Below the pieces are notes generated by a model. That model saw only the letters and a program-made list of their open reading frames with translations, searched no databases and was not told the origin of the DNA. Position numbers and translations under genes: made by a program. A DNA stretch of 24,636 nucleotides from Acidobacteriota bacterium (lineage in GTDB: Bacteria > Acidobacteriota > Blastocatellia > Chloracidobacteriales > JADJPF01), in the NCBI GenBank assembly GCA_017303955.1, contig JAFLBC010000021.1:79810-104445 (forward strand), given 5' to 3'. Positions 7,956 to 21,668 of this stretch are shown here, in pieces (position 1 is the stretch's first letter; each line of letters begins with the position of its first letter).

Positions 7956-10868
7956 ATGAGACTAACGCTGGCTATATTAACTAAGATATATAAGCTAATG
8001 TTTATTACAATATTTATTGGATTATGTTCAACTTTAACATTAGCTCAAGCAACTAAAGGCGATTTTAACCTTGAAATTAATCCAAAATCTGCAACTATTC
8101 CCGTAGGCAATGCAACCAGCTTTAGTATTTCTTTAACACCTGTAAATGGATTTAATGAAGCAATAAAACTAACAGCTAGTTCTTCTGTAAAAATAGATAT
8201 AGATTTCTCTACTAATTCAGTTAGACCGCCAGCTACAGTGACTATGAGAGTTAGCGTCCCTGATACTATACAACCAGGTAGCTATACAATAGGTGTTACA
8301 GCAAGTTCTGGATCAATTACAAAATCACAAAATATAACTATTAATGTCCCTTCGCCAACTTTTAGCTTAAGTGTTAGCCCTACGTCTGTACAAACTACAC
8401 CAAACAGTAGCTTGGATTTTACTGTCTCAGTTGGTGGAGGAAGTGACTTAAAACGAGATGTTTCATTGAATGCTCAAAGCAAAGACGGCTTACCTGTGAG
8501 GTTGTCTAGTGATTTTGTTAGGCCTCCTGGCAGTGTTCGTATGACAGTTACTATTCCTACTGGAACGGAGATAAGAAATTATCAGGTAGTAGTTACTGGT
8601 AGTTTACCAGGCAGTACTACTTCACAAACTGCTACAGTTAACATTGATGTCAGACCTTTACCAGATTATAGGCTTAGCTTTAATCCTACTTCCATTTCTT
8701 TGGCTGCTGGTGAGTCAGGAGATGTTTTTGTCAACATAGCTAGTCTTAACGGGTTTGATCAAAATGTAGACTTAAAAATAGACACTGAACTTAAAGCTTC
8801 CCTTTCTTCCACTGTCATTAATGGAGCAGGTACAACTCGTTTATCTATTAATACAGATCGGAATACGGCTGTTAAAGATTATTTAATTACAGTCAATTCC
8901 TCTAGTAACACTAAAGGAGGAGTAATTACAAAACGCGATACTCTAACAGTTACAGTTACTGCACCGCCTGATTTTACATTAGTTGCTTTACCAAATACTT
9001 TAGATATAGATCCAGGTAAAAGTGCTAATGTTAATGTTTCTATTACTCCTACTAATAGGTTTACTGGAATAGTGAATTTAACAACAAATCCATCTAACCC
9101 TAATATTACAACTAGTTTAACTAGTAATAATATTGGCCCAAACTCAAGTGCAAGTTTAGCAATAAACGTTGGTGCTAATGTTGCACCAGGTACTTATGAT
9201 ATAAGCGTTTTTGGTTCATCTAGCGGAATACCGCAGAAAACAACAATAGTTAGAGTAAATGTTAAATCTGTAGGGGATTTTGACTTGTCACTTAACTCTA
9301 ATAAACAAGAAATTATGGCAGGCGAATCTGCTAATTTTGTTGTTAACACACTCGGACAAATGGGTTTTGCAGAAAGAATTACACTTTCTGCCAGTGTTGA
9401 TGGGCTTCAAACTAGCTTTTCTCCTACTACAATAGATGCAACTGCTATGTCAACTTTGATTGTTAATACTACACAAGAAACAGAGGCTAAAGATTATTTA
9501 GTTACTATTACTGCTAGAGGTGGAGGAATCACTAAGACCACAACAGCTACATTAACAGTAAAACCTCGCTTAATTGGTGATTTTACTTTGATAACTACAC
9601 CAGACTTGCAAACGCTTTCTGCTGGTAAATCAACATCTTTTAGTTTAGCAATAAATCCTGAAAATGGTTTTAATGAGCCAGTTAATTTAACTGCCGAAGT
9701 GTCAGAAAGCTCTATACAAGTAGTCTTTTCTAATAAAACTGCAAGACCTGGTGATAATATTTCTGCTACTATTATTACAACTGGAACTACACCTCCTCAA
9801 AATTACTCTATTAGAATTATAGGTGCTTCAGGTTCCTTAGTTAAAACTGCATTATTTGGCCTAAATGTTACTCCTCAAGTGCAGGAAGCTTTCTCCTTAG
9901 CATTAGCACCTAATCTACAAAGTATTGCTAATGGTGAATCTACAATGTTTACCGTTGGGGTAGTTGGTCGTAATGGCTTTAATCAAGCTGTTAGCTTAAG
10001 TGCTAGTACAACCGATCCAAGCATTCAACTTAATTTTGATAGTTCAAGTGTTAATGCTGGAGGCAATACTTTTATTACTGTAACTACTAGTTCTAATACT
10101 CAACCAGGCACTTACACTATTTCAATTACAGGTAGGGCAGGAAGTTTAACAGTTTCTCAGCCAGTAATTTTAGCTGTTCGTCAAGCTGTTCTAAAAGTAG
10201 ACATTAGCTTTGACCCTCCTCAAGTAGGGCAAATGGGGCCTCCACAAAATGTTAAAGTTGTAGCAACAGAATTAAAACCAGGACAAACTCAATCAATTAG
10301 AACAAGTGCCAATAAACTAGAACCTTTAGCAGATAGTGATTTAGCAGGCTTTAAGATTTATAGGCTTCCAACACCAGCAGAGGGACAACCAGCTTTAACC
10401 GCAGAAGACTTGGTAAAAGATGAAAACTTAATAGCTACAATTCCTAATGATACAACAACTTTTACTGATAATGTTCCAGTAGGGGCAAGCTCAACAGGTA
10501 ATTTCACTTATTCAGTAACAAGCTTTTTTGGAAATGGGCAAAATAGCAATGGTTCTAATCCTATGGGAACGGAACTACCTGTAATTAGAAATCCAAAGTT
10601 TATCAAAGGAACAATTTTCTTAGATTCAGCAAGTTCTTTTATCAACGCAACAGGCGCAACAATAATAATTAATGGTATAGATGAGTATCCATTAATTTTT
10701 AATTCTGAAGCTACTCAATTTACAGTTAATAAGAAAATTACCAGCTTACCAAGTAGCATAACTTTGAAAAAATTAATTAAAAAAGGTCAAACTGTAGAAT
10801 TAGTAGTTAGAAATAAGGATGGTAAACTGTCTGTAGCTAAAAGTCTTACTCGTCCTAAGAAAAAATAA
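7956..10868 (+). CDS. Large secreted/cell-surface protein (970 aa): N-terminal signal-like hydrophobic segment, seven tandem ~100-aa Ig-like (CARDB/NEW3-like) beta-sandwich repeats, and an FN3-like C-terminal region
   Basis: The N-terminus KLMFITIFIGLCSTLTLAQA is signal-peptide-like. Seven repeats share the pattern F-x-L-x-x-x-P....G.S..F.V.h...NGF...V.L.A....(Y.I.V.G.SG). The protein is Ser/Thr/Asn-rich. The C-terminal ~225 aa has FN3-like strands (NVKVVATELKPGQTQSI...FKIYRL...YSVTS). Confidence 0.7.
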   Translation: MRLTLAILTKIYKLMFITIFIGLCSTLTLAQATKGDFNLEINPKSATIPVGNATSFSISLTPVNGFNEAIKLTASSSVKIDIDFSTNSVRPPATVTMRVSVPDTIQPGSYTIGVTASSGSITKSQNITINVPSPTFSLSVSPTSVQTTPNSSLDFTVSVGGGSDLKRDVSLNAQSKDGLPVRLSSDFVRPPGSVRMTVTIPTGTEIRNYQVVVTGSLPGSTTSQTATVNIDVRPLPDYRLSFNPTSISLAAGESGDVFVNIASLNGFDQNVDLKIDTELKASLSSTVINGAGTTRLSINTDRNTAVKDYLITVNSSSNTKGGVITKRDTLTVTVTAPPDFTLVALPNTLDIDPGKSANVNVSITPTNRFTGIVNLTTNPSNPNITTSLTSNNIGPNSSASLAINVGANVAPGTYDISVFGSSSGIPQKTTIVRVNVKSVGDFDLSLNSNKQEIMAGESANFVVNTLGQMGFAERITLSASVDGLQTSFSPTTIDATAMSTLIVNTTQETEAKDYLVTITARGGGITKTTTATLTVKPRLIGDFTLITTPDLQTLSAGKSTSFSLAINPENGFNEPVNLTAEVSESSIQVVFSNKTARPGDNISATIITTGTTPPQNYSIRIIGASGSLVKTALFGLNVTPQVQEAFSLALAPNLQSIANGESTMFTVGVVGRNGFNQAVSLSASTTDPSIQLNFDSSSVNAGGNTFITVTTSSNTQPGTYTISITGRAGSLTVSQPVILAVRQAVLKVDISFDPPQVGQMGPPQNVKVVATELKPGQTQSIRTSANKLEPLADSDLAGFKIYRLPTPAEGQPALTAEDLVKDENLIATIPNDTTTFTDNVPVGASSTGNFTYSVTSFFGNGQNSNGSNPMGTELPVIRNPKFIKGTIFLDSASSFINATGATIIINGIDEYPLIFNSEATQFTVNKKITSLPSSITLKKLIKKGQTVELVVRNKDGKLSVAKSLTRPKKK
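8064..10187 (+). repeat. Seven tandem, diverged ~300-nt coding repeats (protein domain repeats) inside the 970-aa gene
   Basis: Repeat units start at about nt 8064, 8361, 8667, 8973, 9279, 9582 and 9891. Each encodes 99-103 aa beginning F/Y-x-L-x and containing a conserved N-G-F. They are diverged at DNA level (domain duplication, not a recent repeat). Confidence 0.7.
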
Positions 10869-10930: not shown

Positions 10931-12049
10931 TTAAACATTACTTTGACGAAATCTTAGTGATGCTAACAGTAACATTACTAGTCCCATAACTAACATTACT
11001 GCTCCATTTACCCATAAATGATTAAAACCTGCTCCACGTAAAATAATGCCTCGCAAAGTATCAATATAGTAAGTTGTAGGAATAAAACGGCTTATCAACC
11101 AAAATATTTTTGGCATATTATCTAATGAAAAAATATAGCCTGACAAAAATATTGCTGGTAGCAATGTACTCATCGCCATTTGCATTGCTTCGCTTTGAGT
11201 ACGCGCTTTTGTAGAAATAATTAACCCCATCCCTAAAATAGTTAAAATAAAAGGAATAGAGAAAATTAATAGTAAAATTACACTTCCATGAATTGGTACA
11301 TCAAAAGCATAACGCATCACCAGTAAAATCCAGCAAAGCTCAAAAAATCCTAATATCCCATAAGGCAACATCTTTCCTACCATTAACCCTAATGGGCTAA
11401 TAGGTGCTAGGTAAAGATTTTCTAATGTTCCTCGTTCCCGTTCTTTTACTAAAGAAAATGAAATTAAAGCAATTAACATCATTTGTAAGACTACAGCGAC
11501 TAACCCAGGAATAAAAAAGTTAGCTGAACGAGTGCTGGGATTAAAAAGAACTTTATGCCGTGATTCAACTACACCAGGTGATTTTGCTACAATTCGTTTT
11601 AATGATTCTTGTAAAGTAATAGCACTAGATACATTTACTGCCTCACTTGTAACATTTGATTCCGAACCATCAACTAGCAGTAAGACACTAGTGTTTATAC
11701 CTTTTTGCAGAGCGCGTGAGTAATCTTCAGGAATTTTAATTCCAACTTTTGCTTCTCCTGCAACAATTTTATCATAAAGTTCCTTATCAGAATTTACTCT
11801 AGCAACTACATTAAAGTCATCACTATTAATATAACGTTCAATTAAAAGATGACTTTCCTGAGTTTTTGCCAGGTCATAAACTACTGTTTTTATTTGACGT
11901 ACATTAGTATCTACAGCAACGCCTAGTAAAACCATTTCAAAAATAGGTATAAAAAGAGCAAAAAATAATGTTGTTGGGTCGCGTAGTATCTGAAGTATTT
12001 CTTTCTTAAAAACAGGAATTAAGCCTGAAAAAAGATAATTTTCACTCAT
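10931..12049 (-). CDS. ABC-2 type transporter permease (YhhJ/YbhS-like), 372 aa
   Basis: N-terminal TM helix, then a large extracytoplasmic loop, then five C-terminal TM helices ([16 protein letters not shown]..., [22 protein letters not shown]..., [22 protein letters not shown]...). Its start codon overlaps the upstream ATPase stop by 4 nt (ATGA). Confidence 0.8.
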
Positions 12050-13026
12050 AACTTTGTACCTCCTAACAGCGATATGTTGTTAGTAATATTATTAGTTAGA
12101 GTGACAAAAATATCTTCTAAGGAAGGTCTGATAGGGTTTATTACTAGATTTGTAAAACCTGCTGTTTCTAGGTCTTCTTTCAATTTGGAACTACTTTGAG
12201 TTTTTTCACAAAGCACATGAATTGATTGACCAAAAATTGTTGATTCCCAAACATAGGGAAGATCTTTAATAAAACTTAATGCTTCAGATGGAGAGCTAGA
12301 AAGAATTTCTAAGCGTGTTGAACCAACAGGAGAAACTTCTGGCAACGTTCTTAGTTCGTCAACAGTTCCAACAGCAATTAAGTTTGATAAATAGATATAA
12401 CCAACACGGCGGCATCTTTCGGCCTCATCCATATAATGTGTTGTAACAAAAATAGTTATCCCATTAGCAGAAAGCTTAAAAAGCAGATCCCATAAAGCCC
12501 GACGTGCTACAGGGTCAATTCCCGCAGTAGGTTCATCTAGGAATAATACTTCAGGTTCATGAATAATTGCACATCCTAAAGCTAAACGTTGTTTCCAACC
12601 ACCAGATAAAGCACCTGCACGACGTTCTAAATAAGGGGTTAAGCCTGTTAGCTCTAAAACTTCAGGTTTACGTAACTTTATTTGATCTTTTTTCATATGG
12701 TATATGCCAGCATAAAAATCTAAATTCTCATTTACTGTTAGCTCTTCATAAAGACTAAATTTTTGAGACATATAACCAATGCGTTTTTTAATTTTAAAAG
12801 AATCTTTATGAATATCTAAACCAAGAATTTTACCTTCACCAGTTGCATGAGTAATTAGCCCACATAAAGCTTTAATAATCGTAGTTTTACCAGAGCCATT
12901 TGGCCCAAGTAAGCCAAAGATTTCACCTGTTTTTACTTGAAAAGAAACTTTGTTAACAGCAGTAAATTTTCCAAATTTGATGGTTAAATTTTTTGTTGAA
13001 ATTACTGGATCTATTGTATTTATCAT
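12046..13026 (-). CDS. ABC transporter ATP-binding protein, 326 aa
   Basis: Walker [13 protein letters not shown] signature [12 protein letters not shown], Walker [13 protein letters not shown]-loop TTHYMDE. A ~90-aa C-terminal extension follows. It lies 3 nt after the HlyD gene. Confidence 0.9.
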
Positions 13027-13029
13027 AGC

Positions 13030-14172
13030 TTACTCCATTGGCTTTAATTTAACATCAGCCGCCATGCCAGCCTTAAGTAAGCCTTCTTTGTTATCAATAT
13101 GAATTTTAATTGCAAAAACTTGATGAGAACGTTCATCACGATTTTGAACATTTCGGGGTGTAAATTCAGCTTTAGCTGAAATTTGTTCTACTTTTCCAAG
13201 AAAAGCTTTGTTAGGAAAAGAATCAACAAAAACTTCTACTTCCTGTCCAACTTGGACAAAACCCAGATCAGGTTCTGGCACATAGACACGTACACGAATT
13301 TGATCACTTTCCAAAAGTCTTGCAATAGGGCTAGTTGCTTGAACTAGATCGCCTACTCGAACACTAAGCAAATCTATTTGACTATCAACAGGAGCAATTA
13401 CTTCTGCTTCATTTAGTTGGGTGTTAAGTTTTTCAAGCGTCGCATTAGCTTCGGCTAGTCGTGCTTTAGCTTCCAAAATATCTTCGCTTCTTGCACCAGA
13501 TTTAAGTAATTTTAGGTTAGCAATAGCTTGTTGGTAACGTTCTTGACCTACACGAATATCTTCGCTTCTTGTTCCTGCTTCTAAAAGAGCAAGTTTTTGC
13601 TGTAAGGATTGATAACGAGAATCACTTAAAGCTACTTTAGCAGCCATATCATCACAGCTTTGTTTAGAAACATAGCCTTCCTTAAAAAGCTGTTCTAATC
13701 TAGCTAAGGAGGTTTTATAGTGATTTAGTTCAGCTTTTACACCAATAATTTCTTCTTTTAGTTGGGAAATTTCTTGGGGACGTGGGCCATTTTTTAAGGC
13801 TTCTAATTGGGCTAGTTCACGATTAACCGTTGCTTGGGCTTGTGCAATTTCTTCTGTCCGATAACCATTTTCTAGCTTTTTTAGATAAGCCTCAGCTTGG
13901 TCAATTTTTGCTTGGAGTTGTTTTTTTTCTGCTAGCAGGGTGTCATTATCAAATCGTACTAGAGGAGTCCCTTTTTTTACTATTTGCCCTTCTTGTGCTA
14001 AAACTTCTATGACACGACCACCAATTTTAGAACCAATTTGTACTTCTTGAGCTTCGATTGTTCCAAAAAGCAAAAGTTCTACTTTTGTGCTTTCGCTTTT
14101 TGTATACATTCCTGTTACTACAATACCAAATGAGATTAATAAAATAATGATAACAACAAGTTTTTTATACAT
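13030..14172 (-). CDS. HlyD-family membrane fusion (periplasmic adaptor) protein, 380 aa
   Basis: N-terminal TM anchor (LVVIIILLISFGIVVTGMY) and a long central coiled coil (repeated LxxAxxxL/E-Q heptads). The C-terminal beta-domain motifs (VRVRVYVPE, AADVKLK) are typical of HlyD/EmrA adaptors. Confidence 0.85.
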   Translation of the reverse strand: MYKKLVVIIILLISFGIVVTGMYTKSESTKVELLLFGTIEAQEVQIGSKIGGRVIEVLAQEGQIVKKGTPLVRFDNDTLLAEKKQLQAKIDQAEAYLKKLENGYRTEEIAQAQATVNRELAQLEALKNGPRPQEISQLKEEIIGVKAELNHYKTSLARLEQLFKEGYVSKQSCDDMAAKVALSDSRYQSLQQKLALLEAGTRSEDIRVGQERYQQAIANLKLLKSGARSEDILEAKARLAEANATLEKLNTQLNEAEVIAPVDSQIDLLSVRVGDLVQATSPIARLLESDQIRVRVYVPEPDLGFVQVGQEVEVFVDSFPNKAFLGKVEQISAKAEFTPRNVQNRDERSHQVFAIKIHIDNKEGLLKAGMAADVKLKPME

Positions 14173-14213
14173 TTGTCACCTCGTTATAAAAAAATGAAGA
14201 GAACAAAATAAAC

Positions 14214-16874
14214 TTAGTCTTTGATCATTATTTGGCCTTTATCACCGTCAACAGTTATATGTTGACCATTTTTAATTATAGTAAGCAGATTAGGAATATT
14301 TACTACTGCCGGTAGTCCATATTCACGCGCAACAATCGCGCCATGAGATAAAAATCCTCCTACTTGCATAACTATTGCTGAAGCACGTAAAAAAAGAGGT
14401 GTCCAACCTGGGTCAGTTGTAGGGGCTATAAGTATTTCTCCTGGAGCTAACAGATTGCCTTCTGATGGGTGCATAATAATTCTTGCAATACCTGAATATT
14501 TCCCGCTAGATACTGCTAAACCTTTTAATATTGTGCCATTTGAAGTTTTTTCTATTATTGCTGGTTTATTGACTGCGCTAGTATTTGTTGTAGGGTTGCC
14601 AAAATGATCAAAAATATAAAAATCTTTAATAGTTGTTTCTTTTAACCAAATTTCTCTTTGGTTTCTATTGTCTGTTGCTATTTCTCTTGCTCCTTGTCCG
14701 TTCCATTGGCCTGTTAAATAAGCTTCCATATCAAAACCGCTTAAATGAAAAATATCTGTTGGATCATCTAAGAAACCACTGTTAACAAGGCGTTTACCAA
14801 CTTCTAAGCAAATTTTTCTAATAGGCTCTATGGTTGCAACTAACGTAGATTTGCTAAGTTCGCGTAGTGCTGCACCTTGGCGAGCTTTTTTAGTAAACCA
14901 ATTGATTAAAGGACGATAAGGAAAAGAAAGCTGTGAAATTTCTTTTTCTGCTGCTTGACGAACTGCTATAGCAGTGTTTTTTGGGGAAGTGATGTTTTCT
15001 GAGCTTAAAATTAATTGTATTTGTTCAAATAAATAGCTAGGGTCTTCATTCCATCGTGGGTTGGCTGTTTCAGCTTCATAAACTGCCCGATGTCCAAATT
15101 CAGCTAAAAACTTTTCAAACTCTTGACGAAAACTAGATGTTTTAGGAAGCTTTTGCCAGTCTTTAGCAATAATTGGTGTTTGTTTTAGATAAGTAAGTGC
15201 GTCTGTGTCTTGTTGTGCTACTTTGGCTAAATGGTAAAGTTGATAACCATGCTCTGCTGTAGTAACTTGTCCGCTACCAGCTAAAACCGCTGTAGTTAAA
15301 GCCTCGGCCCTCTCAGGTTTAATTTTTGTTAGCGTTTCTTTAATTGGTGTCACCCACGCACCAGCATTAGCATTAGCCAACTGAAACTTTTTAGCAAATT
15401 CATATTGAAAAACTAAAATTTCCCTAACTAAATCTGCTAATTCTTGATTAGATTTACTTGCTACATCTGTGTTTTTCCAACCCTTTATGCGTGTTTGTAA
15501 AGTGACAATATCTTTTGGCATTTGTCGGGAAATCTTAAGCAATACTCTAAGAAATTTTATTTGTCTTAGTTTACGTGTTAATCCTACTTTACCTTTTAGG
15601 GGATCGCCTGAAGGCACAGGAATTAAAGGATGATGACCGCCTAGTCCCCGTGAAGTGTCTTCGGGAGACATTCCAACAGCATCATAAAAAGCCCATTGCA
15701 TAGTTGTTACTTCAAAATAACCACGTCCGTTAAAACGCTTAAGCATTGGTGAACCATCTTTTCTGGGATAATCCATTGCATCTAAGATTTCATATAAAAT
15801 TTCAGAAACAAAGTCATGCACCATATGCCAGGTTAAAGTAGTCGGTACACCTGCAACAGCGTCTTGAATATTTCCTGTTGACCAAATTATTGGTAAATGC
15901 TCAATATTTGGGAAAGTATAATGAGGTAAACGGGTTACAGGTCTAGCTTGAAGCAGCCAAAACTTTTCTCCATCAAATGCCCATTCTATGTCCTGTGGGT
16001 TATCACCTTTTCCTATTGCCCAATGAATACGCCAAACCAGTTGAGTTAATTTTATTGTTTGTTCTGGAGTTAAAACTTGTTGCTCAGGGCTTTTTCTTGA
16101 TATTTCAGTTAGATTACCTTCTTTAGATAAAACTGTAATTTCTTCAGGATTAACTTGACCACTAACCAGGGCCTCAGCTAAACCATTGACAGCATTAATT
16201 GTTACAACATTAAGTTGACCTGTTCGCGGGTCGCAAGAAAATGCTACACCGGCTGATTTAGCCTTGACCATCTCACAAATTACTACAGCACAAGCCACTT
16301 GGTCATCTTTCAAATTCATTTTACGACGATAAGCAATTGCTTGTGGTGTCCAAAGTGAGCCATAACAACCTTTAATTGCATCAATTATTTCTCTTAGCCC
16401 TTGAACATTTAGAAAACTGCGATGAATACCAGCAAATGAAGCCGTTTCGCTATCTTCTGCCGTCGCGCTAGAACGAACGGCAACAGATGTATTTAATAAG
16501 TTATTTTGTTTAAGAAAATTTTCTAGCTCTAATGTAAATTCTTTTGAAAAATTAATGTTGGCTAAAATCTCTTGGATTTTATTAAGTTTTTCTATTGTTT
16601 GAGCTTCTGAGACGGATAAAGGGGATATATTTTCTAATTCTAATTGTAGGCTTTTTAACTCTGGGCTAAGCATTATTTCTTGATAAAGGTTGGCTGTAAC
16701 TACACCGCCTACAGGAACTTGAAAGCCATAGCGGTAAAGCTGGCCTAATTTCCAGCCTTTTCCACCACAAAGCGCGGCTCCAGCTAATGCTGCTGTTGTC
16801 CAATCTAAGATTTTGCTACTTGTAATTTCTTCATCATTTATAAAATTAATTGCTACTTGACTTGCATTGCTCAT
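14214..16874 (-). CDS. PEP-utilising phosphotransferase of the PEP synthase/PPDK family with rifampin-phosphotransferase-like architecture: N-terminal ATP-grasp, ~450-aa middle domain, C-terminal His swivel domain; 886 aa
   Basis: N-terminal PPDK_N-type motifs (GGKGWKLGQL, VAVRSSATAEDSETASFAGIHRSF, QDIEWAF). The extreme C-terminus is the PEP-utilisers mobile domain with the catalytic His (APTTDPGWTPLF...GGFLSHGAIVAREYGLPAVVN). There is no C-terminal TIM-barrel PEP/pyruvate domain, so this is not a canonical PpsA or PPDK. Confidence 0.8.
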   Translation of the reverse strand: MSNASQVAINFINDEEITSSKILDWTTAALAGAALCGGKGWKLGQLYRYGFQVPVGGVVTANLYQEIMLSPELKSLQLELENISPLSVSEAQTIEKLNKIQEILANINFSKEFTLELENFLKQNNLLNTSVAVRSSATAEDSETASFAGIHRSFLNVQGLREIIDAIKGCYGSLWTPQAIAYRRKMNLKDDQVACAVVICEMVKAKSAGVAFSCDPRTGQLNVVTINAVNGLAEALVSGQVNPEEITVLSKEGNLTEISRKSPEQQVLTPEQTIKLTQLVWRIHWAIGKGDNPQDIEWAFDGEKFWLLQARPVTRLPHYTFPNIEHLPIIWSTGNIQDAVAGVPTTLTWHMVHDFVSEILYEILDAMDYPRKDGSPMLKRFNGRGYFEVTTMQWAFYDAVGMSPEDTSRGLGGHHPLIPVPSGDPLKGKVGLTRKLRQIKFLRVLLKISRQMPKDIVTLQTRIKGWKNTDVASKSNQELADLVREILVFQYEFAKKFQLANANAGAWVTPIKETLTKIKPERAEALTTAVLAGSGQVTTAEHGYQLYHLAKVAQQDTDALTYLKQTPIIAKDWQKLPKTSSFRQEFEKFLAEFGHRAVYEAETANPRWNEDPSYLFEQIQLILSSENITSPKNTAIAVRQAAEKEISQLSFPYRPLINWFTKKARQGAALRELSKSTLVATIEPIRKICLEVGKRLVNSGFLDDPTDIFHLSGFDMEAYLTGQWNGQGAREIATDNRNQREIWLKETTIKDFYIFDHFGNPTTNTSAVNKPAIIEKTSNGTILKGLAVSSGKYSGIARIIMHPSEGNLLAPGEILIAPTTDPGWTPLFLRASAIVMQVGGFLSHGAIVAREYGLPAVVNIPNLLTIIKNGQHITVDGDKGQIMIKD

Positions 16875-17505
16875 AAGGTGGAACTCCTTTAGCTAAAGAG
16901 AAATCCAGACTTGGTTTAGCACCTTCTAAAAACAAAGAAAGACAAAAATTAAGTTTTTCTTTTAATGAAATATTTTCACTAGATTCTAGCCAATATCTTA
17001 CTGAATGGATGAAAACAAGCCCAAAGATTTGTGAAAGCTCATAGGAAGAAATATCATTTCTAAGCTCGCCTTTTTCTTGTGCTGTGGCTAAAAACTTATG
17101 GACAACCTGCCTAAATGAAGGATGATCATGGCGTTCATGATGCTTTTTCATATGCTGATAATTACTAATGCTATAGTGGAAAAAAATATTAGCTAGCTTA
17201 CGGTTTTCTGTTAGCCATCTTGCGGCTTCTGCTAGAAAATCCTGAAGTGCAATAAGAGGTGATTGACCTGTTTCTATAGCTATTTGTGTACGCAAAGCGT
17301 TTTCTAACATAGCCGTTTCACCAAGTGCTAAAACTAGTTCCTCTTTACATTCAAAATGATAATAAAATGTTCCCTTAGCTACTTTGGCAGCTTTAGTAAT
17401 ATCGTCTATAGTGGTTGTTTCATAACCTTGTTTGGTAAATAGTGAAATTGCTGTAGAAATGATTTGCTCACGGGTGGCAGTTCGTTTTTCTTCTCTTAAT
17501 CCCAT
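16846..17505 (-). CDS. TetR/AcrR-family transcriptional regulator, 219 aa
   Basis: N-terminal HTH TREQIISTAISLFTKQGYETTTIDDITKAAKVAKGTFYYHFECKEELV is a canonical TetR_N. It is the first gene of the operon. Its 3' end overlaps the phosphotransferase start by 29 nt. Confidence 0.85.
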   Translation of the reverse strand: MGLREEKRTATREQIISTAISLFTKQGYETTTIDDITKAAKVAKGTFYYHFECKEELVLALGETAMLENALRTQIAIETGQSPLIALQDFLAEAARWLTENRKLANIFFHYSISNYQHMKKHHERHDHPSFRQVVHKFLATAQEKGELRNDISSYELSQIFGLVFIHSVRYWLESSENISLKEKLNFCLSLFLEGAKPSLDFSLAKGVPPYEQCKSSSN

Positions 17506-17654: not shown

Positions 17655-18032
17655 ATGACAAATAAAGAAATTCAAAAATTAATAGAATTTATTATCACTC
17701 AACAAGCAGAAATGTCTGTAAAACATGCACAGATACTTGATATTCAATTTGAAACTGCAAAAAGACAAGGTGAATATGAAAAACGCCAAGCTGAATTTGA
17801 AATCAAATTTAACAATAAATTAGATGCTTTATTAGATTGGCAAGCAAAATTTAGTATTGATTTAGAAGATTTAAGAAAAGAGACTAAGGAATTTAGAGAC
17901 GACCTTAAAAAAACTAAAGATACCCTTAAAGAAACTAATGATATCCTTAAACAAGTTTCTCATTTGGCTGTTGAAACTTCTGAAAGAGTTGATAAGCTTG
18001 AAGATAAGCTTGAAGATAACGAAAAAGAATAA
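17655..18032 (+). CDS. Small highly charged coiled-coil protein (125 aa), hypothetical
   Basis: Lys/Glu/Asp-rich ORF with heptad-like periodicity (LKETNDILKQV..., VDKLEDKLEDNEKE) and no TM segment. It is divergent from the TetR operon and convergent with the 502-aa ORF. Confidence 0.5.
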   Translation: MTNKEIQKLIEFIITQQAEMSVKHAQILDIQFETAKRQGEYEKRQAEFEIKFNNKLDALLDWQAKFSIDLEDLRKETKEFRDDLKKTKDTLKETNDILKQVSHLAVETSERVDKLEDKLEDNEKE

Positions 18033-18059: not shown

Positions 18060-19568
18060 CTACGTTATTTTATCTAGTAACCAGGTAGGCCATTCAGATT
18101 CTTTATTCCAAAGTAAATATTCCTTTACATAATCTTGCAACATCACTCTAAAAAAAATAGGCAGTTGAAATTGCCCATTTCCTTTCCAGTAATTTTCCCA
18201 ATAAATCGGAAGAGAAAAATTAAATATTTTGTTAGCTTCCTGGATAATTCGTTGAAATTGATTGGTTTGTATTTGAAGGCTATCCAGGAAATCTTGTTGT
18301 AAAAATTTAATGCCTGATATGTCTGGCTGCCAACAATCAATCTTTTGCTCTCGCTCAATTTTTTGCTCTAAAACCTTCCATTTGTTATTAGCAGTTTTTC
18401 TTAAGACTCCAGCCTTAAAAAGCATTGGCAGCAATTCAATTACTACTTTTTTATTAAAAATAGCTAGCTGAGAGCTTTTTGCTGATAAATAAACCTCAAT
18501 TTCTTGGGCAGTAGCGGATAAATCTGTAATATCAATATTAGTAAAATCACATAATGCGTTAGCTAGGCGTTTAAGATAGATTTTTAAGCTAGTTGAAGGC
18601 TTTACAGATGGACAAGCATTGTCCAAGTCCCAAGAATAATTAAGTTCTGTGCGCCAAATTTCTGGTCTTTGTTGCCACCAGTTTAAGAGTAAAATTAGCA
18701 ATACTACTAGACGTTCTAAAGGTTTTGTTTCTGGAATAATTACTGTAAGTCGTGAACCTTCATTAATTTGCTCTGCATATTCTAGGCATTCTTTTAATAG
18801 CGTAGGCAAATAATTAATTTTTTGAAGAAACTCTGTTGCCAAAGAAACAAAGTTTGATAAATCACATTCAGCAAATAAAGAGCATAAATTTAATTTTCGT
18901 TTTACTCCAAAACAAGTAACAAACTCTAAACTTAATTTATTTTTTAAGTTGGGTAGTTCAGCAATATTAGTAATTTGCTTTAAGTTTGTTGCTACTTGCC
19001 AATAAGATTTTGGTGTAACGGTTAGTCGTTTTTCAAGGTCGTCTTGGCACCAAATAATGATTTTTTCCCGCAGTTTTATTATTGCTATTTTGCAAGCATG
19101 ATGAGGATCTGAGCCTAAATTAAAGTTGTCAAACCAGTCATCAATTGACACTTTTGACCAAAGTTTATTTGGACGATTAACGGCCATATCCAACAGAGCA
19201 GCAGCAGTTCTAGTTGCTGGATCATCTCTAAATAAACTTGGGTCAGCACTATAAATGCTTCCAATCCGAGGCATTCCGCTACGATAAAGCAGACCGGAAA
19301 AGGCTAGCCCAATAAATAAACCTGTAGGCTTTTTGTCTCCATAATCTACTTCACTGTCCTTCCACCTTGGCGCACTTTGGTCAGCTTGAAAATTAATGTC
19401 AATTAAGATTATGTCAGGGTCAATTAATTCTGTTTGAGTGTTAAGCAAATGTTGGGCAGTTGTCCAAGTGTCAATATGCAGTAAATCTAGATCATCTGCT
19501 CTTAAAACAGGATAAGAAATATAGTCATTTACATCATCGATTAATAGAATTTGTAGCTTATCACTCAT
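18060..19568 (-). CDS. Hypothetical 502-aa protein with an N-terminal receiver (REC)-like region; no recognised family
   Basis: The N-terminus LQILLIDDVND ... DIILIDINF ... GLFIGLAFSG resembles receiver-domain beta1 (acidic pair), beta3 (phospho-acceptor Asp position) and beta4. The remaining ~380 aa has no motif I recognise. It starts 6 nt after the 697-aa ORF stops, consistent with co-transcription. Confidence 0.55.
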   Translation of the reverse strand: MSDKLQILLIDDVNDYISYPVLRADDLDLLHIDTWTTAQHLLNTQTELIDPDIILIDINFQADQSAPRWKDSEVDYGDKKPTGLFIGLAFSGLLYRSGMPRIGSIYSADPSLFRDDPATRTAAALLDMAVNRPNKLWSKVSIDDWFDNFNLGSDPHHACKIAIIKLREKIIIWCQDDLEKRLTVTPKSYWQVATNLKQITNIAELPNLKNKLSLEFVTCFGVKRKLNLCSLFAECDLSNFVSLATEFLQKINYLPTLLKECLEYAEQINEGSRLTVIIPETKPLERLVVLLILLLNWWQQRPEIWRTELNYSWDLDNACPSVKPSTSLKIYLKRLANALCDFTNIDITDLSATAQEIEVYLSAKSSQLAIFNKKVVIELLPMLFKAGVLRKTANNKWKVLEQKIEREQKIDCWQPDISGIKFLQQDFLDSLQIQTNQFQRIIQEANKIFNFSLPIYWENYWKGNGQFQLPIFFRVMLQDYVKEYLLWNKESEWPTWLLDKIT

Positions 19569-19574
19569 AAATTT

Positions 19575-21668
19575 TTATTTTTGGAAAACAAGCTGAGGAC
19601 GAAATCTTATAGCAATAGAATGGTAATTTGATGGTGATTTATCTACAAGCAAAAATTCAACTAACTTTTTTTCTTCTCCTTTATCATTGCGAAATACAAA
19701 ACAGGAAAGCAAGTTTTGAGTTCTTTTTAGCCCATCGGAAAGTTCTGTTGGCTTTTCGTCCCCTGCTACAGGGTTAGAAATCAGTAATTCATAAAATTCA
19801 TCCTCTTCTAAAATTAAAGAAAACTTTATATCAATAATGTAATTGATTAAATCTTTTGACTTTAAGAAAAATTTCTTGTTTTGTTCTAGTTGTTTAACTA
19901 AATATTGGATTGCATTACCTAAAATCTCATGTATTCCTACTAGAAATAATGAGGTTGCCTCTATGCTAAATGGTGGAAATACAGGTATTTCTGCTAAATT
20001 GCTATTTTGTTCTAGTTTTGGACATAAACAATCATTTGATTTGCTACACTCAGCTTTATGAAAAATAATAGCAATACTACTAGAGTTAATTAGAGAGAAT
20101 AATAAATGCTGAATAATTTCTTGAATGGTTTTGCGCCAAAGGTCAGCAAACTCTTGTAAGTTAAAAGCATTAGTGTTATTAATAAGTTTTAATAAGTAAG
20201 TTTTAGGATTATCAAATTTTGTTACAGTTCTAATTGCATCTGTAAGATGATAAAGCTCTTGTAGGACGGCGCAAGTATAAAGCACTTCAGCCTTTTCTAT
20301 CGGCTCATTATTTAGGCTTTTAGCATAAAGAACGCGGTAACGACTCCGCCGGCTTAAGGTGTTCATAATTTCATGAGTTAAGCCTTGAGTAAGAAAATAT
20401 TGTTCTTTAATAATAATTGCTGCTGTTCGGGAAAGTTTTTCTCTAAATTGTGCTTCCCAATATTCTTCTTGACCAGGTAGATTTAACTTTACACCTGGAC
20501 AATTTCTGTAAATTACTAAATCAAAACCAAAGGCTTTTTTAAGTAAATAAGCATCTTTATGTCTGTTTAGATTAAAAATTATTGTTGCTGTAGAGTTGCT
20601 ATCTTCTTCAATTATCAGGAGTTTTGATTTTTCTGTACTAGATTCTGATATTGGTAAGGACGCTAAATTGTTTTCTTTTTTTTCTACTGAAAAATGAAGA
20701 GCTAAAGAGTTTTCTCTAAAAAATAAAATTTCTTCTGCAATCCATAAATGAGAAAAAACATTTGCAACGTTTTTCATTCTTTCCAAAGCATCTGTGTGTT
20801 TAGAAATAGCGTCTTCAAGTAGAAAAATAAAAACATCTATTAAATTAATAGAGTAAATTTCCTCAATTGCTAAAATTAATGATTCAGGAGGCGACTTTCT
20901 AACTAATCTAAGATGCTCTTTTAACTGCTTATTTTTAGGACAGATCCAGCCAGCCATAGCTCGCCATTGTGCTAAACCTCTTAGCGGTAACAAAATAGGA
21001 ATAAATGCGCTAGGCAGAATTTTGGAAAATGAAGATAGTCGTGCATAAAGATATTCTGCTAGGTAAATATGCAAATTTTCTGCTGTTATAAGATTGTTTT
21101 GAACTGTGTAATTTAATAATGCAATTAAATTAGAATACTTAATTTGTTTATATTGGTTAGGATTGTTATTTTTATTTAAGTTTGCTATATCCAATAGAGC
21201 TTGAAAACTAAAAGGAGTTTTACGATGACTACTACTAATTAAAAGAGCTTCAGCAGAAATAATATATCCAACCGCGCCGCCTATAAGTTCTAAGTGAAAT
21301 CCTAAATTTTCTTCACTTCCAACACCATCACCAATTTCAAGCAATTTACATAAGTCACTGGTTGGATCCAATATTTTGCTAGCAAGCTCAATTAAAGCTT
21401 GATGATTATTATCTACATTTTTGTAATTTTCTTGCCAATAAAGATAGATATTTTTTTTGATTTTTTCAGCACATTCTTTGGTGTTAGAGTTAGTTTGATA
21501 GCCTGTATCCCAGAACTGAATTTTGTCAGATAGAGGATTAAAACTTCTTTGTTGGGTAAGAAAAAAATGTTGTAGCTTAGGGGTAAAATGTTGCAATGTC
21601 CAAACTAGTAAATCAAAGCAGCGTTTTTGAATCGCTTCTGCATTTAATTTTGCTTCTAAACTTAGCAT
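19575..21668 (-). CDS. Hypothetical 697-aa protein; no recognised family
   Basis: Long uninterrupted ORF, Asn/Lys/Ile/Leu-rich. It has one short motif, HEILGNAIQY, reminiscent of a GHKL/histidine-kinase N-box, but no G1/G2 boxes are evident. It is the upstream partner of the 502-aa ORF. Confidence 0.55.
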   Translation of the reverse strand: MLSLEAKLNAEAIQKRCFDLLVWTLQHFTPKLQHFFLTQQRSFNPLSDKIQFWDTGYQTNSNTKECAEKIKKNIYLYWQENYKNVDNNHQALIELASKILDPTSDLCKLLEIGDGVGSEENLGFHLELIGGAVGYIISAEALLISSSHRKTPFSFQALLDIANLNKNNNPNQYKQIKYSNLIALLNYTVQNNLITAENLHIYLAEYLYARLSSFSKILPSAFIPILLPLRGLAQWRAMAGWICPKNKQLKEHLRLVRKSPPESLILAIEEIYSINLIDVFIFLLEDAISKHTDALERMKNVANVFSHLWIAEEILFFRENSLALHFSVEKKENNLASLPISESSTEKSKLLIIEEDSNSTATIIFNLNRHKDAYLLKKAFGFDLVIYRNCPGVKLNLPGQEEYWEAQFREKLSRTAAIIIKEQYFLTQGLTHEIMNTLSRRSRYRVLYAKSLNNEPIEKAEVLYTCAVLQELYHLTDAIRTVTKFDNPKTYLLKLINNTNAFNLQEFADLWRKTIQEIIQHLLFSLINSSSIAIIFHKAECSKSNDCLCPKLEQNSNLAEIPVFPPFSIEATSLFLVGIHEILGNAIQYLVKQLEQNKKFFLKSKDLINYIIDIKFSLILEEDEFYELLISNPVAGDEKPTELSDGLKRTQNLLSCFVFRNDKGEEKKLVEFLLVDKSPSNYHSIAIRFRPQLVFQK

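Follow-up and report, generated by a model that had tools for sequence, protein, structure and literature searches.

A coupled gene pair of Blastocatellia-type Acidobacteria that probably encodes a very divergent two-component signalling system

The 24,636-bp stretch of acidobacterial DNA analysed here (contig JAFLBC010000021.1 of assembly GCA_017303955.1, positions 79,810 to 104,445; hereafter the window) carries a gene for a 502-amino-acid (aa) protein, the first 120 residues of which correspond exactly to window positions 19209-19568 and had been described, from the sequence alone, as resembling a CheY-like receiver with no kinase partner evident. The locus raises the question of whether this domain is a receiver and, if it is, which protein would phosphorylate it. 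We propose that the 502-aa protein and the 697-aa protein encoded next to it are a probable two-component signalling system, so divergent that standard domain libraries miss it. The kinase that had seemed to be absent adjoins the receiver-like protein: judged from its structure model, the 697-aa protein is a divergent histidine-kinase-fold protein with an invariant histidine, His432, and the reservation made in the same preliminary description, that this neighbour might be a highly divergent kinase, was well placed.

The proposal is based on the pairing and tight coupling of the two genes, on the kinase fold of the partner in a low-confidence model, on the invariance of His432 and Asn585 in the partner and of Asp12 and Asp57 in the 502-aa protein, on a Ser or Thr at position 107 of the latter, on a weak, register-correct similarity of its N-terminus to receivers, and on a winged helix in its C-terminal region.

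The gene pair and its family

Both genes were taken from the list of open reading frames (ORFs) and are located on the minus strand, as are all features described within them. The gene of the 697-aa partner (19575-21668), which encodes a helical N-terminal region of approximately 400 aa followed by a histidine-kinase-like C-terminus, precedes that of the 502-aa protein (18060-19568), composed of the receiver-like N-terminal domain and a helical and winged-helix C-terminal region, with 6 nt between the end of the former and the start codon of the latter. The pairing of these two gene types is present in every locus examined, with varying flanking genes: it is kept in the close relatives of Blastocatellia type, in an intermediate relative at 43% identity (locus L020) and in three distant relatives at about 20% identity (loci L017, L018 and L019). 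The two genes overlap by 4 nt in two other loci and abut in one further locus, and in the intermediate and distant loci an unannotated gene is located immediately 5' of the relative of the 502-aa gene, either overlapping it or within about 90 nt.

Neither protein has a match in Pfam, NCBIfam or PADLOC, even at E<=1, and a Pfam search with 14 distant relatives of the 502-aa protein and with their partners returned no domain match, Response_reg included. Full-length profiles of both proteins, compared with all PDB sequences, gave chance matches only (the RAF RBD, a CCA-adding enzyme and phosphoglycerate kinase). Relatives are few. Among 5.8 billion cluster representatives, searched through a word index, there were eight homologues of the 502-aa protein and six of the 697-aa protein, and the lengths of their contigs matched; an exhaustive hidden Markov model search for the 502-aa family, run over 1.84 billion representatives, returned 18 proteins at E<=0.001; and a search with the close alignment through 185,579 species genomes, one genome per species, found two loci, one in a metagenome-assembled genome (MAG) of the Blastocatellia and one in a MAG labelled Clostridia, where the match is 95% identical to the 502-aa protein. 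Altogether the family comprises about 30 sequences from Blastocatellia-type Acidobacteria and from unassigned metagenome contigs. The distant relatives of the 502-aa protein, between 300 and 690 aa in length, have in common the N-terminal domain and two motifs, SLFAD in the centre and WPxWL in the C-terminal part.

The 95%-identical copy (L015, CAZBMZ010000008.1) belongs to the 'uncultured Clostridia bacterium' MAG, NCBI lists the 697-aa protein under an Acidobacteria MAG, and the relative that comes next is from the Blastocatellia MAG; a wrong taxonomic label on one of them, or mis-binning of the contig, is the probable cause of this disagreement.

Histidine-kinase-like core of the partner protein

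The histidine-kinase-like core of the 697-aa protein covers approximately residues 401-697 (19575-20468) and consists of a helical hairpin carrying His432, followed by a CA-like alpha/beta domain. In structure comparisons of the AlphaFold model, isolated CA domains superposed over 110-121 residues at 2.7-3.2 A and combined DHp and CA modules over 150-184 residues, the matches including the HWE/HisKA_2-type kinase EL346 (4r3a), BceS and ChpT-like phosphotransferases, and a CA domain with the Bergerat ATP-binding fold was recognized on this low-confidence model. The candidate autophosphorylation site His432 (codon at 20373-20375, in GLTH432EIMNTL) is found within a long helix (residues 401-439), next to which stands a second one (459-483). 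It is invariant across close, intermediate and distant partners, where the motif reads THEIMN, SHEFMN, GHEIKN, GHELKN or GHGVVG. Asn585 (codon at 19914-19916) is part of the N-box-like motif H-E581-ILG-N585-A-IQY, the E...NA of which is invariant in both partner subfamilies. The local hhalign matches of the partner to E. coli kinases, none of them significant, fall on the H-box of PhoR, with His432 on the phospho-His, and, as the best for the second motif, on the N-boxes of NarX and BtsS.

The nucleotide pocket is less conventional. In the distant and intermediate loci the partner C-termini keep the His, an A-x-R, an F-x-P, the E...NA of the N-box and, at the positions of the G1 and G2 boxes, an Asn and an S-x-G respectively; the G1 box itself is replaced by x-N-x(3-8)-[DE], and the G2 box is cut to S-x-G (S644-D-G646-L in the window protein). 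A near-canonical G1 box, DDSTPGIP, within RNLLLDDSTPGIPDG, is shown by the partner from L020 only, and comparison with this box suggests that D637 of the window partner may be the G1 acidic residue and that its ATP lid may be very short.

Between the helical hairpin and the N-box, the window partner has a His/Cys cluster, H537-x3-C541-x5-C547-x-C549 (20022-20060), which is invariant in six close partners, occurs in L020 as FHEEDCGVSPSCEC, and is absent from the distant partners. Its residue pattern may be that of a zinc, iron-sulfur or other metal-binding insertion, or of a redox-sensing one. Membrane anchoring of the partner was considered and rejected for want of a convincing transmembrane segment: mean hydropathy over 19 residues reaches at most 1.78, the segments concerned include acidic residues, and the 697-aa protein is therefore probably soluble.

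Part of the evidence on the partner pulls away from an active kinase. Its model has a mean pLDDT (the per-residue confidence score of AlphaFold) of 42, with 53-73 in the last 200 residues; the ChpT-like phosphotransferases found among its fold matches do not bind ATP; and the non-canonical G1 and G2 boxes make ATP binding by the partner uncertain. The protein has no significant HisKA or HATPase_c match, its profiles matched no kinase among the PDB sequences, and the hhalign comparison with E. coli kinases was, as stated, not significant. The unusual boxes and the very short lid, together with a translational coupling that suggests a 1:1 stoichiometry, also favour a different reading of the pair, in which proteins descended from a receiver and from a kinase form a stable complex that transfers no phosphoryl group, the kinase-like domain serving as a scaffold or as an ATP-independent phosphotransferase (as ChpT and Spo0B do) and the receiver-like domain as a module for interaction. 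Catalytic residues are usually the first to be lost from pseudo-receivers and pseudo-kinases, whereas in this family the residues needed for catalysis (His432, Asn585, Asp12, Asp57 and Ser/Thr107) stay invariant at about 20% identity, and we regard such an inert complex as unlikely.

The receiver-like N-terminal domain

Family alignments, PDB profile matches and hhalign define the receiver-like domain as approximately residues 1-135 of the 502-aa protein (19164-19568), a region of low confidence in the AlphaFold model. The three motif strings on which its first description relied are all present: LQILLIDDVND at residues 5-15, DIILIDINF at residues 52-60 and GLFIGLAFSG at residues 83-92. Nine positions are invariant in an alignment of 17 sequences that reaches down to about 20% identity: D12, D57, F60, D63, P67, P81, G83, L84 and P100. 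For one of these sequences, P0008 of L020, a corrected start was used: its gene call begins 22 codons late, the upstream in-frame MDDKVRVLLVNDVASSVGHPV (L020:1512-1577) restores the beta1 strand with the invariant Asp, and its real N-terminus reads MDDKVRVLLVNDV.

Asp57 (codon at 19398-19400, in DIILID57-I-N59-F60, as read directly from the sequence) had been assigned to the phospho-acceptor position, and this assignment is supported: the residue is invariant and aligns with the Asp that ends beta3 in receivers, which in Sma0114, Rcp1 and the E. coli receivers we take to be the phospho-acceptor, making Asp57 the candidate acceptor here. The acidic pair claimed for the end of beta1 stands in one of its two members, Asp12 (codon at 19533-19535), an invariant candidate metal-binding residue aligned with the beta1-end acidic residues of receivers; its neighbour D11 varies (D, N, H, C or I). 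The spacing from D12 to D57 is 45 residues, and that from D13 to D57 of CheY is 44. Ser107 (codon at 19248-19250, in P100-RIGSIY-S107-A-D-P) terminates the modelled strand 103-106; each of the 17 sequences has Ser or Thr there, and the residue is a candidate counterpart of the beta4 Thr/Ser of receivers. That role had previously been given to S91, at the end of GLFIGLAFSG, which had been read as beta4. In distant relatives S91 is replaced by L, A or V; the invariant P81-x-G83-L84 that precedes the GLAFSG segment mirrors the P-x-x-D-G-L turn leading into alpha3 of receivers; and the best local hhalign match of LAFSGLLYR is receiver alpha3, in a half of the domain the alignment of which is not significant. 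The segment is, on these sequence comparisons, probably alpha3, and S107 the better candidate for the hydroxyl residue.

When the family profile was searched against 177,635 distinct PDB sequences, receivers made up four of the seven weak matches, all at profile positions 2-76 and in the same register. The best was the receiver Sma0114 (2lpm) at E=0.14, and at 0.073 with an improved alignment, followed by two Rcp1 receivers at E of about 0.9 and by 8pdc, a 143-residue chain deposited as 'histidine kinase', at E=1.7. In each receiver match LLIDD falls on the end of beta1 and ILID57 on the Asp ending beta3. Compared by hhalign with 11 E. coli response regulators, the profile aligned over residues 4-61 with a probability of 72% (P=3.3e-5, score 35.2), placing LLIDD over LVVED of PhoB; block-shuffled controls scored 17.6 on average (sd 3.1, maximum 31.4), and the reversed profile scored 20.4. 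With the invariance of D12 and D57, these matches lift the motif pattern above a chance resemblance. Structure prediction, proposed earlier as a check, speaks neither for nor against a flavodoxin-like fold: with a pLDDT of 29-58 over the N-terminal 160 residues the model is unreliable there, and the order of its elements follows that of receivers (beta1 7-11, beta2 27-31, alpha2 35-44, beta3 53-57, a strand at 103-106 and a helix at 117-131).

The case against a receiver has several parts. The hhalign probability is under the usual acceptance level and concerns the beta1-beta3 half of the domain only; the second half, aligned to receivers by itself, was not significant (P=0.2). No significant Response_reg match exists for the 502-aa protein, Pfam giving nothing at E<=1. 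The preliminary description had named the lack of a significant receiver profile match as an outcome that would overturn its proposal, and taken formally this is what was found. The beta5 Lys, which that description was unable to place, could not be placed here either: the family alignments show neither a conserved Lys nor a recognizable beta5 after the helix that follows S107, and the sole invariant basic residue nearby is R167, within a long helix. The stretch between beta1 and beta2 counts 15 residues in the 502-aa protein and varies by tens in its relatives, and because it is short and variable in length, helix alpha1, the usual kinase docking surface of receivers, is not conserved. Finally, Asp57 is followed by a conserved insertion of 17-30 residues, consisting of N59-F60-x-x-D63-x3-P67 and 13-25 variable residues. 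The missing Lys and the unconserved alpha1 add to what favours the inert complex discussed above, and a non-phosphorylated pseudo-receiver, the second option of the preliminary description, is possible.

The same insertion gives a footing to an alternative that dispenses with the receiver. The domain could be a metal-dependent alpha/beta catalytic domain, Toprim-like or phosphatase-like, with D12, D57 and D63 as ligands, and the 502-aa protein would then act on nucleic acid, to which the C-terminal winged helix could bind, while being regulated by or paired with the kinase-fold protein. Receivers have no equivalent of the invariant F60 and D63, the receiver profile match is not significant and covers half of the domain, and the N-terminal model is unreliable, all of which would suit such an enzyme. 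On the other hand, receivers are the only recurrent PDB matches, in a consistent register, where a Toprim-like DxD would have its second Asp this family has Asn, Lys, Arg or His, and an obligate partner with a histidine-kinase fold and an invariant His fits a receiver best; we consider an enzyme of this kind improbable. HAD-type DxDxT and Toprim-type DxD motifs were looked for in the conserved columns of the family alignment and rejected.

Taken together, the description of the N-terminus as receiver-like stands on the invariant D12 and D57, on the weak PDB matches in the correct register and on the coupled partner with its kinase fold, and falls short at the level of a significant receiver profile match. 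That the domain is by evolutionary origin a receiver seems likely to us.

Signalling route, neighbourhood and comparison with known systems

In the well-modelled C-terminal region of the 502-aa protein, structure comparison of the model gave winged-helix fold matches, the module covering approximately residues 350-400 (18369-18521); no PNP-like or other enzyme-like effector fold was found in this C-terminus by the same comparison. From this, and from the features described above, a route of signalling can be drawn, in which the binding of ATP and of DNA, the autophosphorylation, the transfer of the phosphoryl group and the nature of the signal are inferred. The helical N-terminal region of about 400 aa of the probably soluble 697-aa protein, possibly with its His/Cys cluster, would sense a signal and thereby control the autophosphorylation of His432 by the CA-like domain, with its N-box Asn585, G1-like Asp637 and short ATP lid. 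The phosphoryl group would pass from His432 to Asp57 of the 502-aa protein, where Asp12 would aid metal binding and Ser107 would contact the phosphoryl group. Phosphorylation would then alter the C-terminal helical and winged-helix region, most likely its binding of nucleic acid, and hence transcription. For this full mechanism, with transfer from the kinase-like to the receiver-like protein, we judge the chances to be slightly better than even.

A bolder reading takes the absent beta5 Lys, the unconserved alpha1, the insertion with F60, D63 and P67 and the altered nucleotide pocket as marks of a hitherto unrecognized deep branch of His-Asp signalling, for which we see an outside chance. Were it correct, chemistry or docking geometry could differ from canonical phosphotransfer, and the module of the distant subfamily may be wired to an ABC transporter.

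In the three distant loci (L017:3264-11719, L018:77-4349 and L019:1-4097) the pair is located directly 3' of a gene for an ABC-transporter ATPase, on the same strand, and in L017 the transporter set is complete, with substrate-binding protein (PF04392), permease and ATPase. This arrangement suggests that the pair of the distant subfamily is a transporter-linked signalling module. BceS, the PDB entry of which is a complex with the BceAB transporter, is among the fold matches of the partner. Downstream of the pair in L017 (12847-21719) are a gene of the ThiF (E1-like) type, several small ORFs that lack annotation, and a gene whose product exceeds 1,700 aa and faintly matches VWA; at this one locus, the neighbourhood could be of a conflict-system-like type.

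A role in anti-phage defence, Detocs-like or other, with a receiver controlling an effector that would be toxic, was among the options of the preliminary description. A kinase-like protein and a receiver-like protein with a non-standard C-terminus resemble the logic of Detocs in outline (bioRxiv 10.1101/2023.01.24.525353), the family is rare and patchily distributed, and the ThiF-like and very large VWA genes of L017 are nearby. PADLOC, however, matches neither protein; the pair has two genes, against three in Detocs, and no enzyme-like effector fold was detected; at the four close loci of Blastocatellia type the pair stands alone amid unrelated housekeeping genes, with no defence genes among the listed Pfam matches; and the three distant loci follow the ATPase gene instead. 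The pair also lacks a strong compositional anomaly: its GC content of 31-34% is only slightly under that of the rest of the window, the composition profile of which shows no clear island. The defence proposal was not borne out by these data, and we hold such a role to be very improbable.

The immediate neighbours in the window, an M28 peptidase gene upstream and a convergent coiled-coil ORF downstream, are not conserved neighbours of the pair; both were considered as members of the module and rejected, as neither adjoins the pair in other loci. The downstream ORF (17655-18032, plus strand), convergent with the 502-aa gene, encodes a highly charged 125-aa protein with weak coiled-coil-type Pfam matches only. 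A scan for promoters and terminators was uninformative, finding fewer sites than in shuffled sequence. Further away, a same-strand run on the minus strand (10931-17505) encodes a TetR-family regulator (a Pfam match), the end of which overlaps the start of the next gene, and then proteins of 886, 380, 326 and 372 aa, of which the 886-aa protein is encoded by the overlapped gene, the 326-aa protein has ABC ATPase-type motifs and the 372-aa protein is hydrophobic; judged by eye, it looks like a regulated efflux or resistance cluster. The 970-aa protein encoded at 7956-10868 (plus strand) has a hydrophobic signal-like segment at its N-terminus and many modules of about 100 aa in tandem, in which motifs such as '...NGFNE.V.L.A...' recur; going by its sequence, it looks like a secreted or surface protein of repetitive beta-sandwich type.

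Surveys of two-component systems generally depend on Pfam-type models, and the pair shows that kinase-regulator modules can escape such models completely. If phosphotransfer is confirmed, the receiver-like domain would show how much change a receiver active site tolerates without loss of function (the beta5 Lys and a fixed alpha1 absent, an invariant acidic insertion gained), and the partner would add a new sensor domain and an ATP pocket with a minimal lid to the range of kinases. The family is tiny, which makes its biological reach narrow and its interest mainly evolutionary and structural.

Set beside known systems, the pair shares with Detocs the logic of a kinase and a receiver-effector with a non-standard output domain. 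Detection of Detocs calls for three genes, the kinase dtcA, the stand-alone receiver dtcB, which acts as a buffer, and dtcC, with a receiver and a PNP or other effector, usually a PNP ATP-nucleosidase (bioRxiv 10.1101/2023.01.24.525353); here two genes are conserved, with no stand-alone receiver gene, no PNP-type effector, no PADLOC match and no defence-island context. From phosphotransferases of the ChpT and Spo0B type the partner differs in keeping, in very distant members, the E...NA of the N-box, the Asn of the G1 position with an acidic residue close by, and the S-x-G, a pattern of conservation that argues for a retained ligand pocket; also, beside the pair there is no apparent upstream kinase from which a phosphotransferase could receive its phosphoryl group. 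AgrC-type (HPK10) and other short-lid kinases differ from the partner, which has no membrane sensor domain and no similarity to them detectable by HMMER or hhalign, and the regulator has no LytTR output.

Sma0114 of Sinorhizobium meliloti (2lpm) is the best PDB match of the family profile, over beta1-beta3 and with the acidic residue and the Asp in register. It is paired with an HWE-type kinase, and the HWE/HisKA_2-type kinase EL346 (4r3a) is among the fold matches of the partner. The match is under significance and covers half of the domain, Sma0114 is a single-domain protein of 123 residues, and the receiver subfamily of which it is a member has a PFxFATGY motif, not seen in the 502-aa protein. 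Canonical systems of the OmpR/PhoB type (HisKA and HATPase_c in the kinase, Response_reg PF00072 and a winged helix in the regulator) are set apart from the pair by several features: no Pfam or NCBIfam model detects it; the regulator has no beta5 Lys, no conserved alpha1, an N-F-x-x-D-x3-P insertion after the acceptor Asp, and a C-terminal region of about 340 aa that is far larger than Trans_reg_C and unrelated to it in sequence; and the partner starts with some 400 aa of a novel helical region, departs from the canonical G1 and G2 boxes, and has a probably short lid. Common to both are the kinase-regulator gene order with its tight coupling, the DHp and CA-like fold of the kinase or partner with its conserved His and N-box Asn, and a regulator that has an acidic end to beta1, an Asp at the end of beta3, a Ser/Thr ending a later strand (in the pair a candidate counterpart) and a winged helix in its C-terminus.

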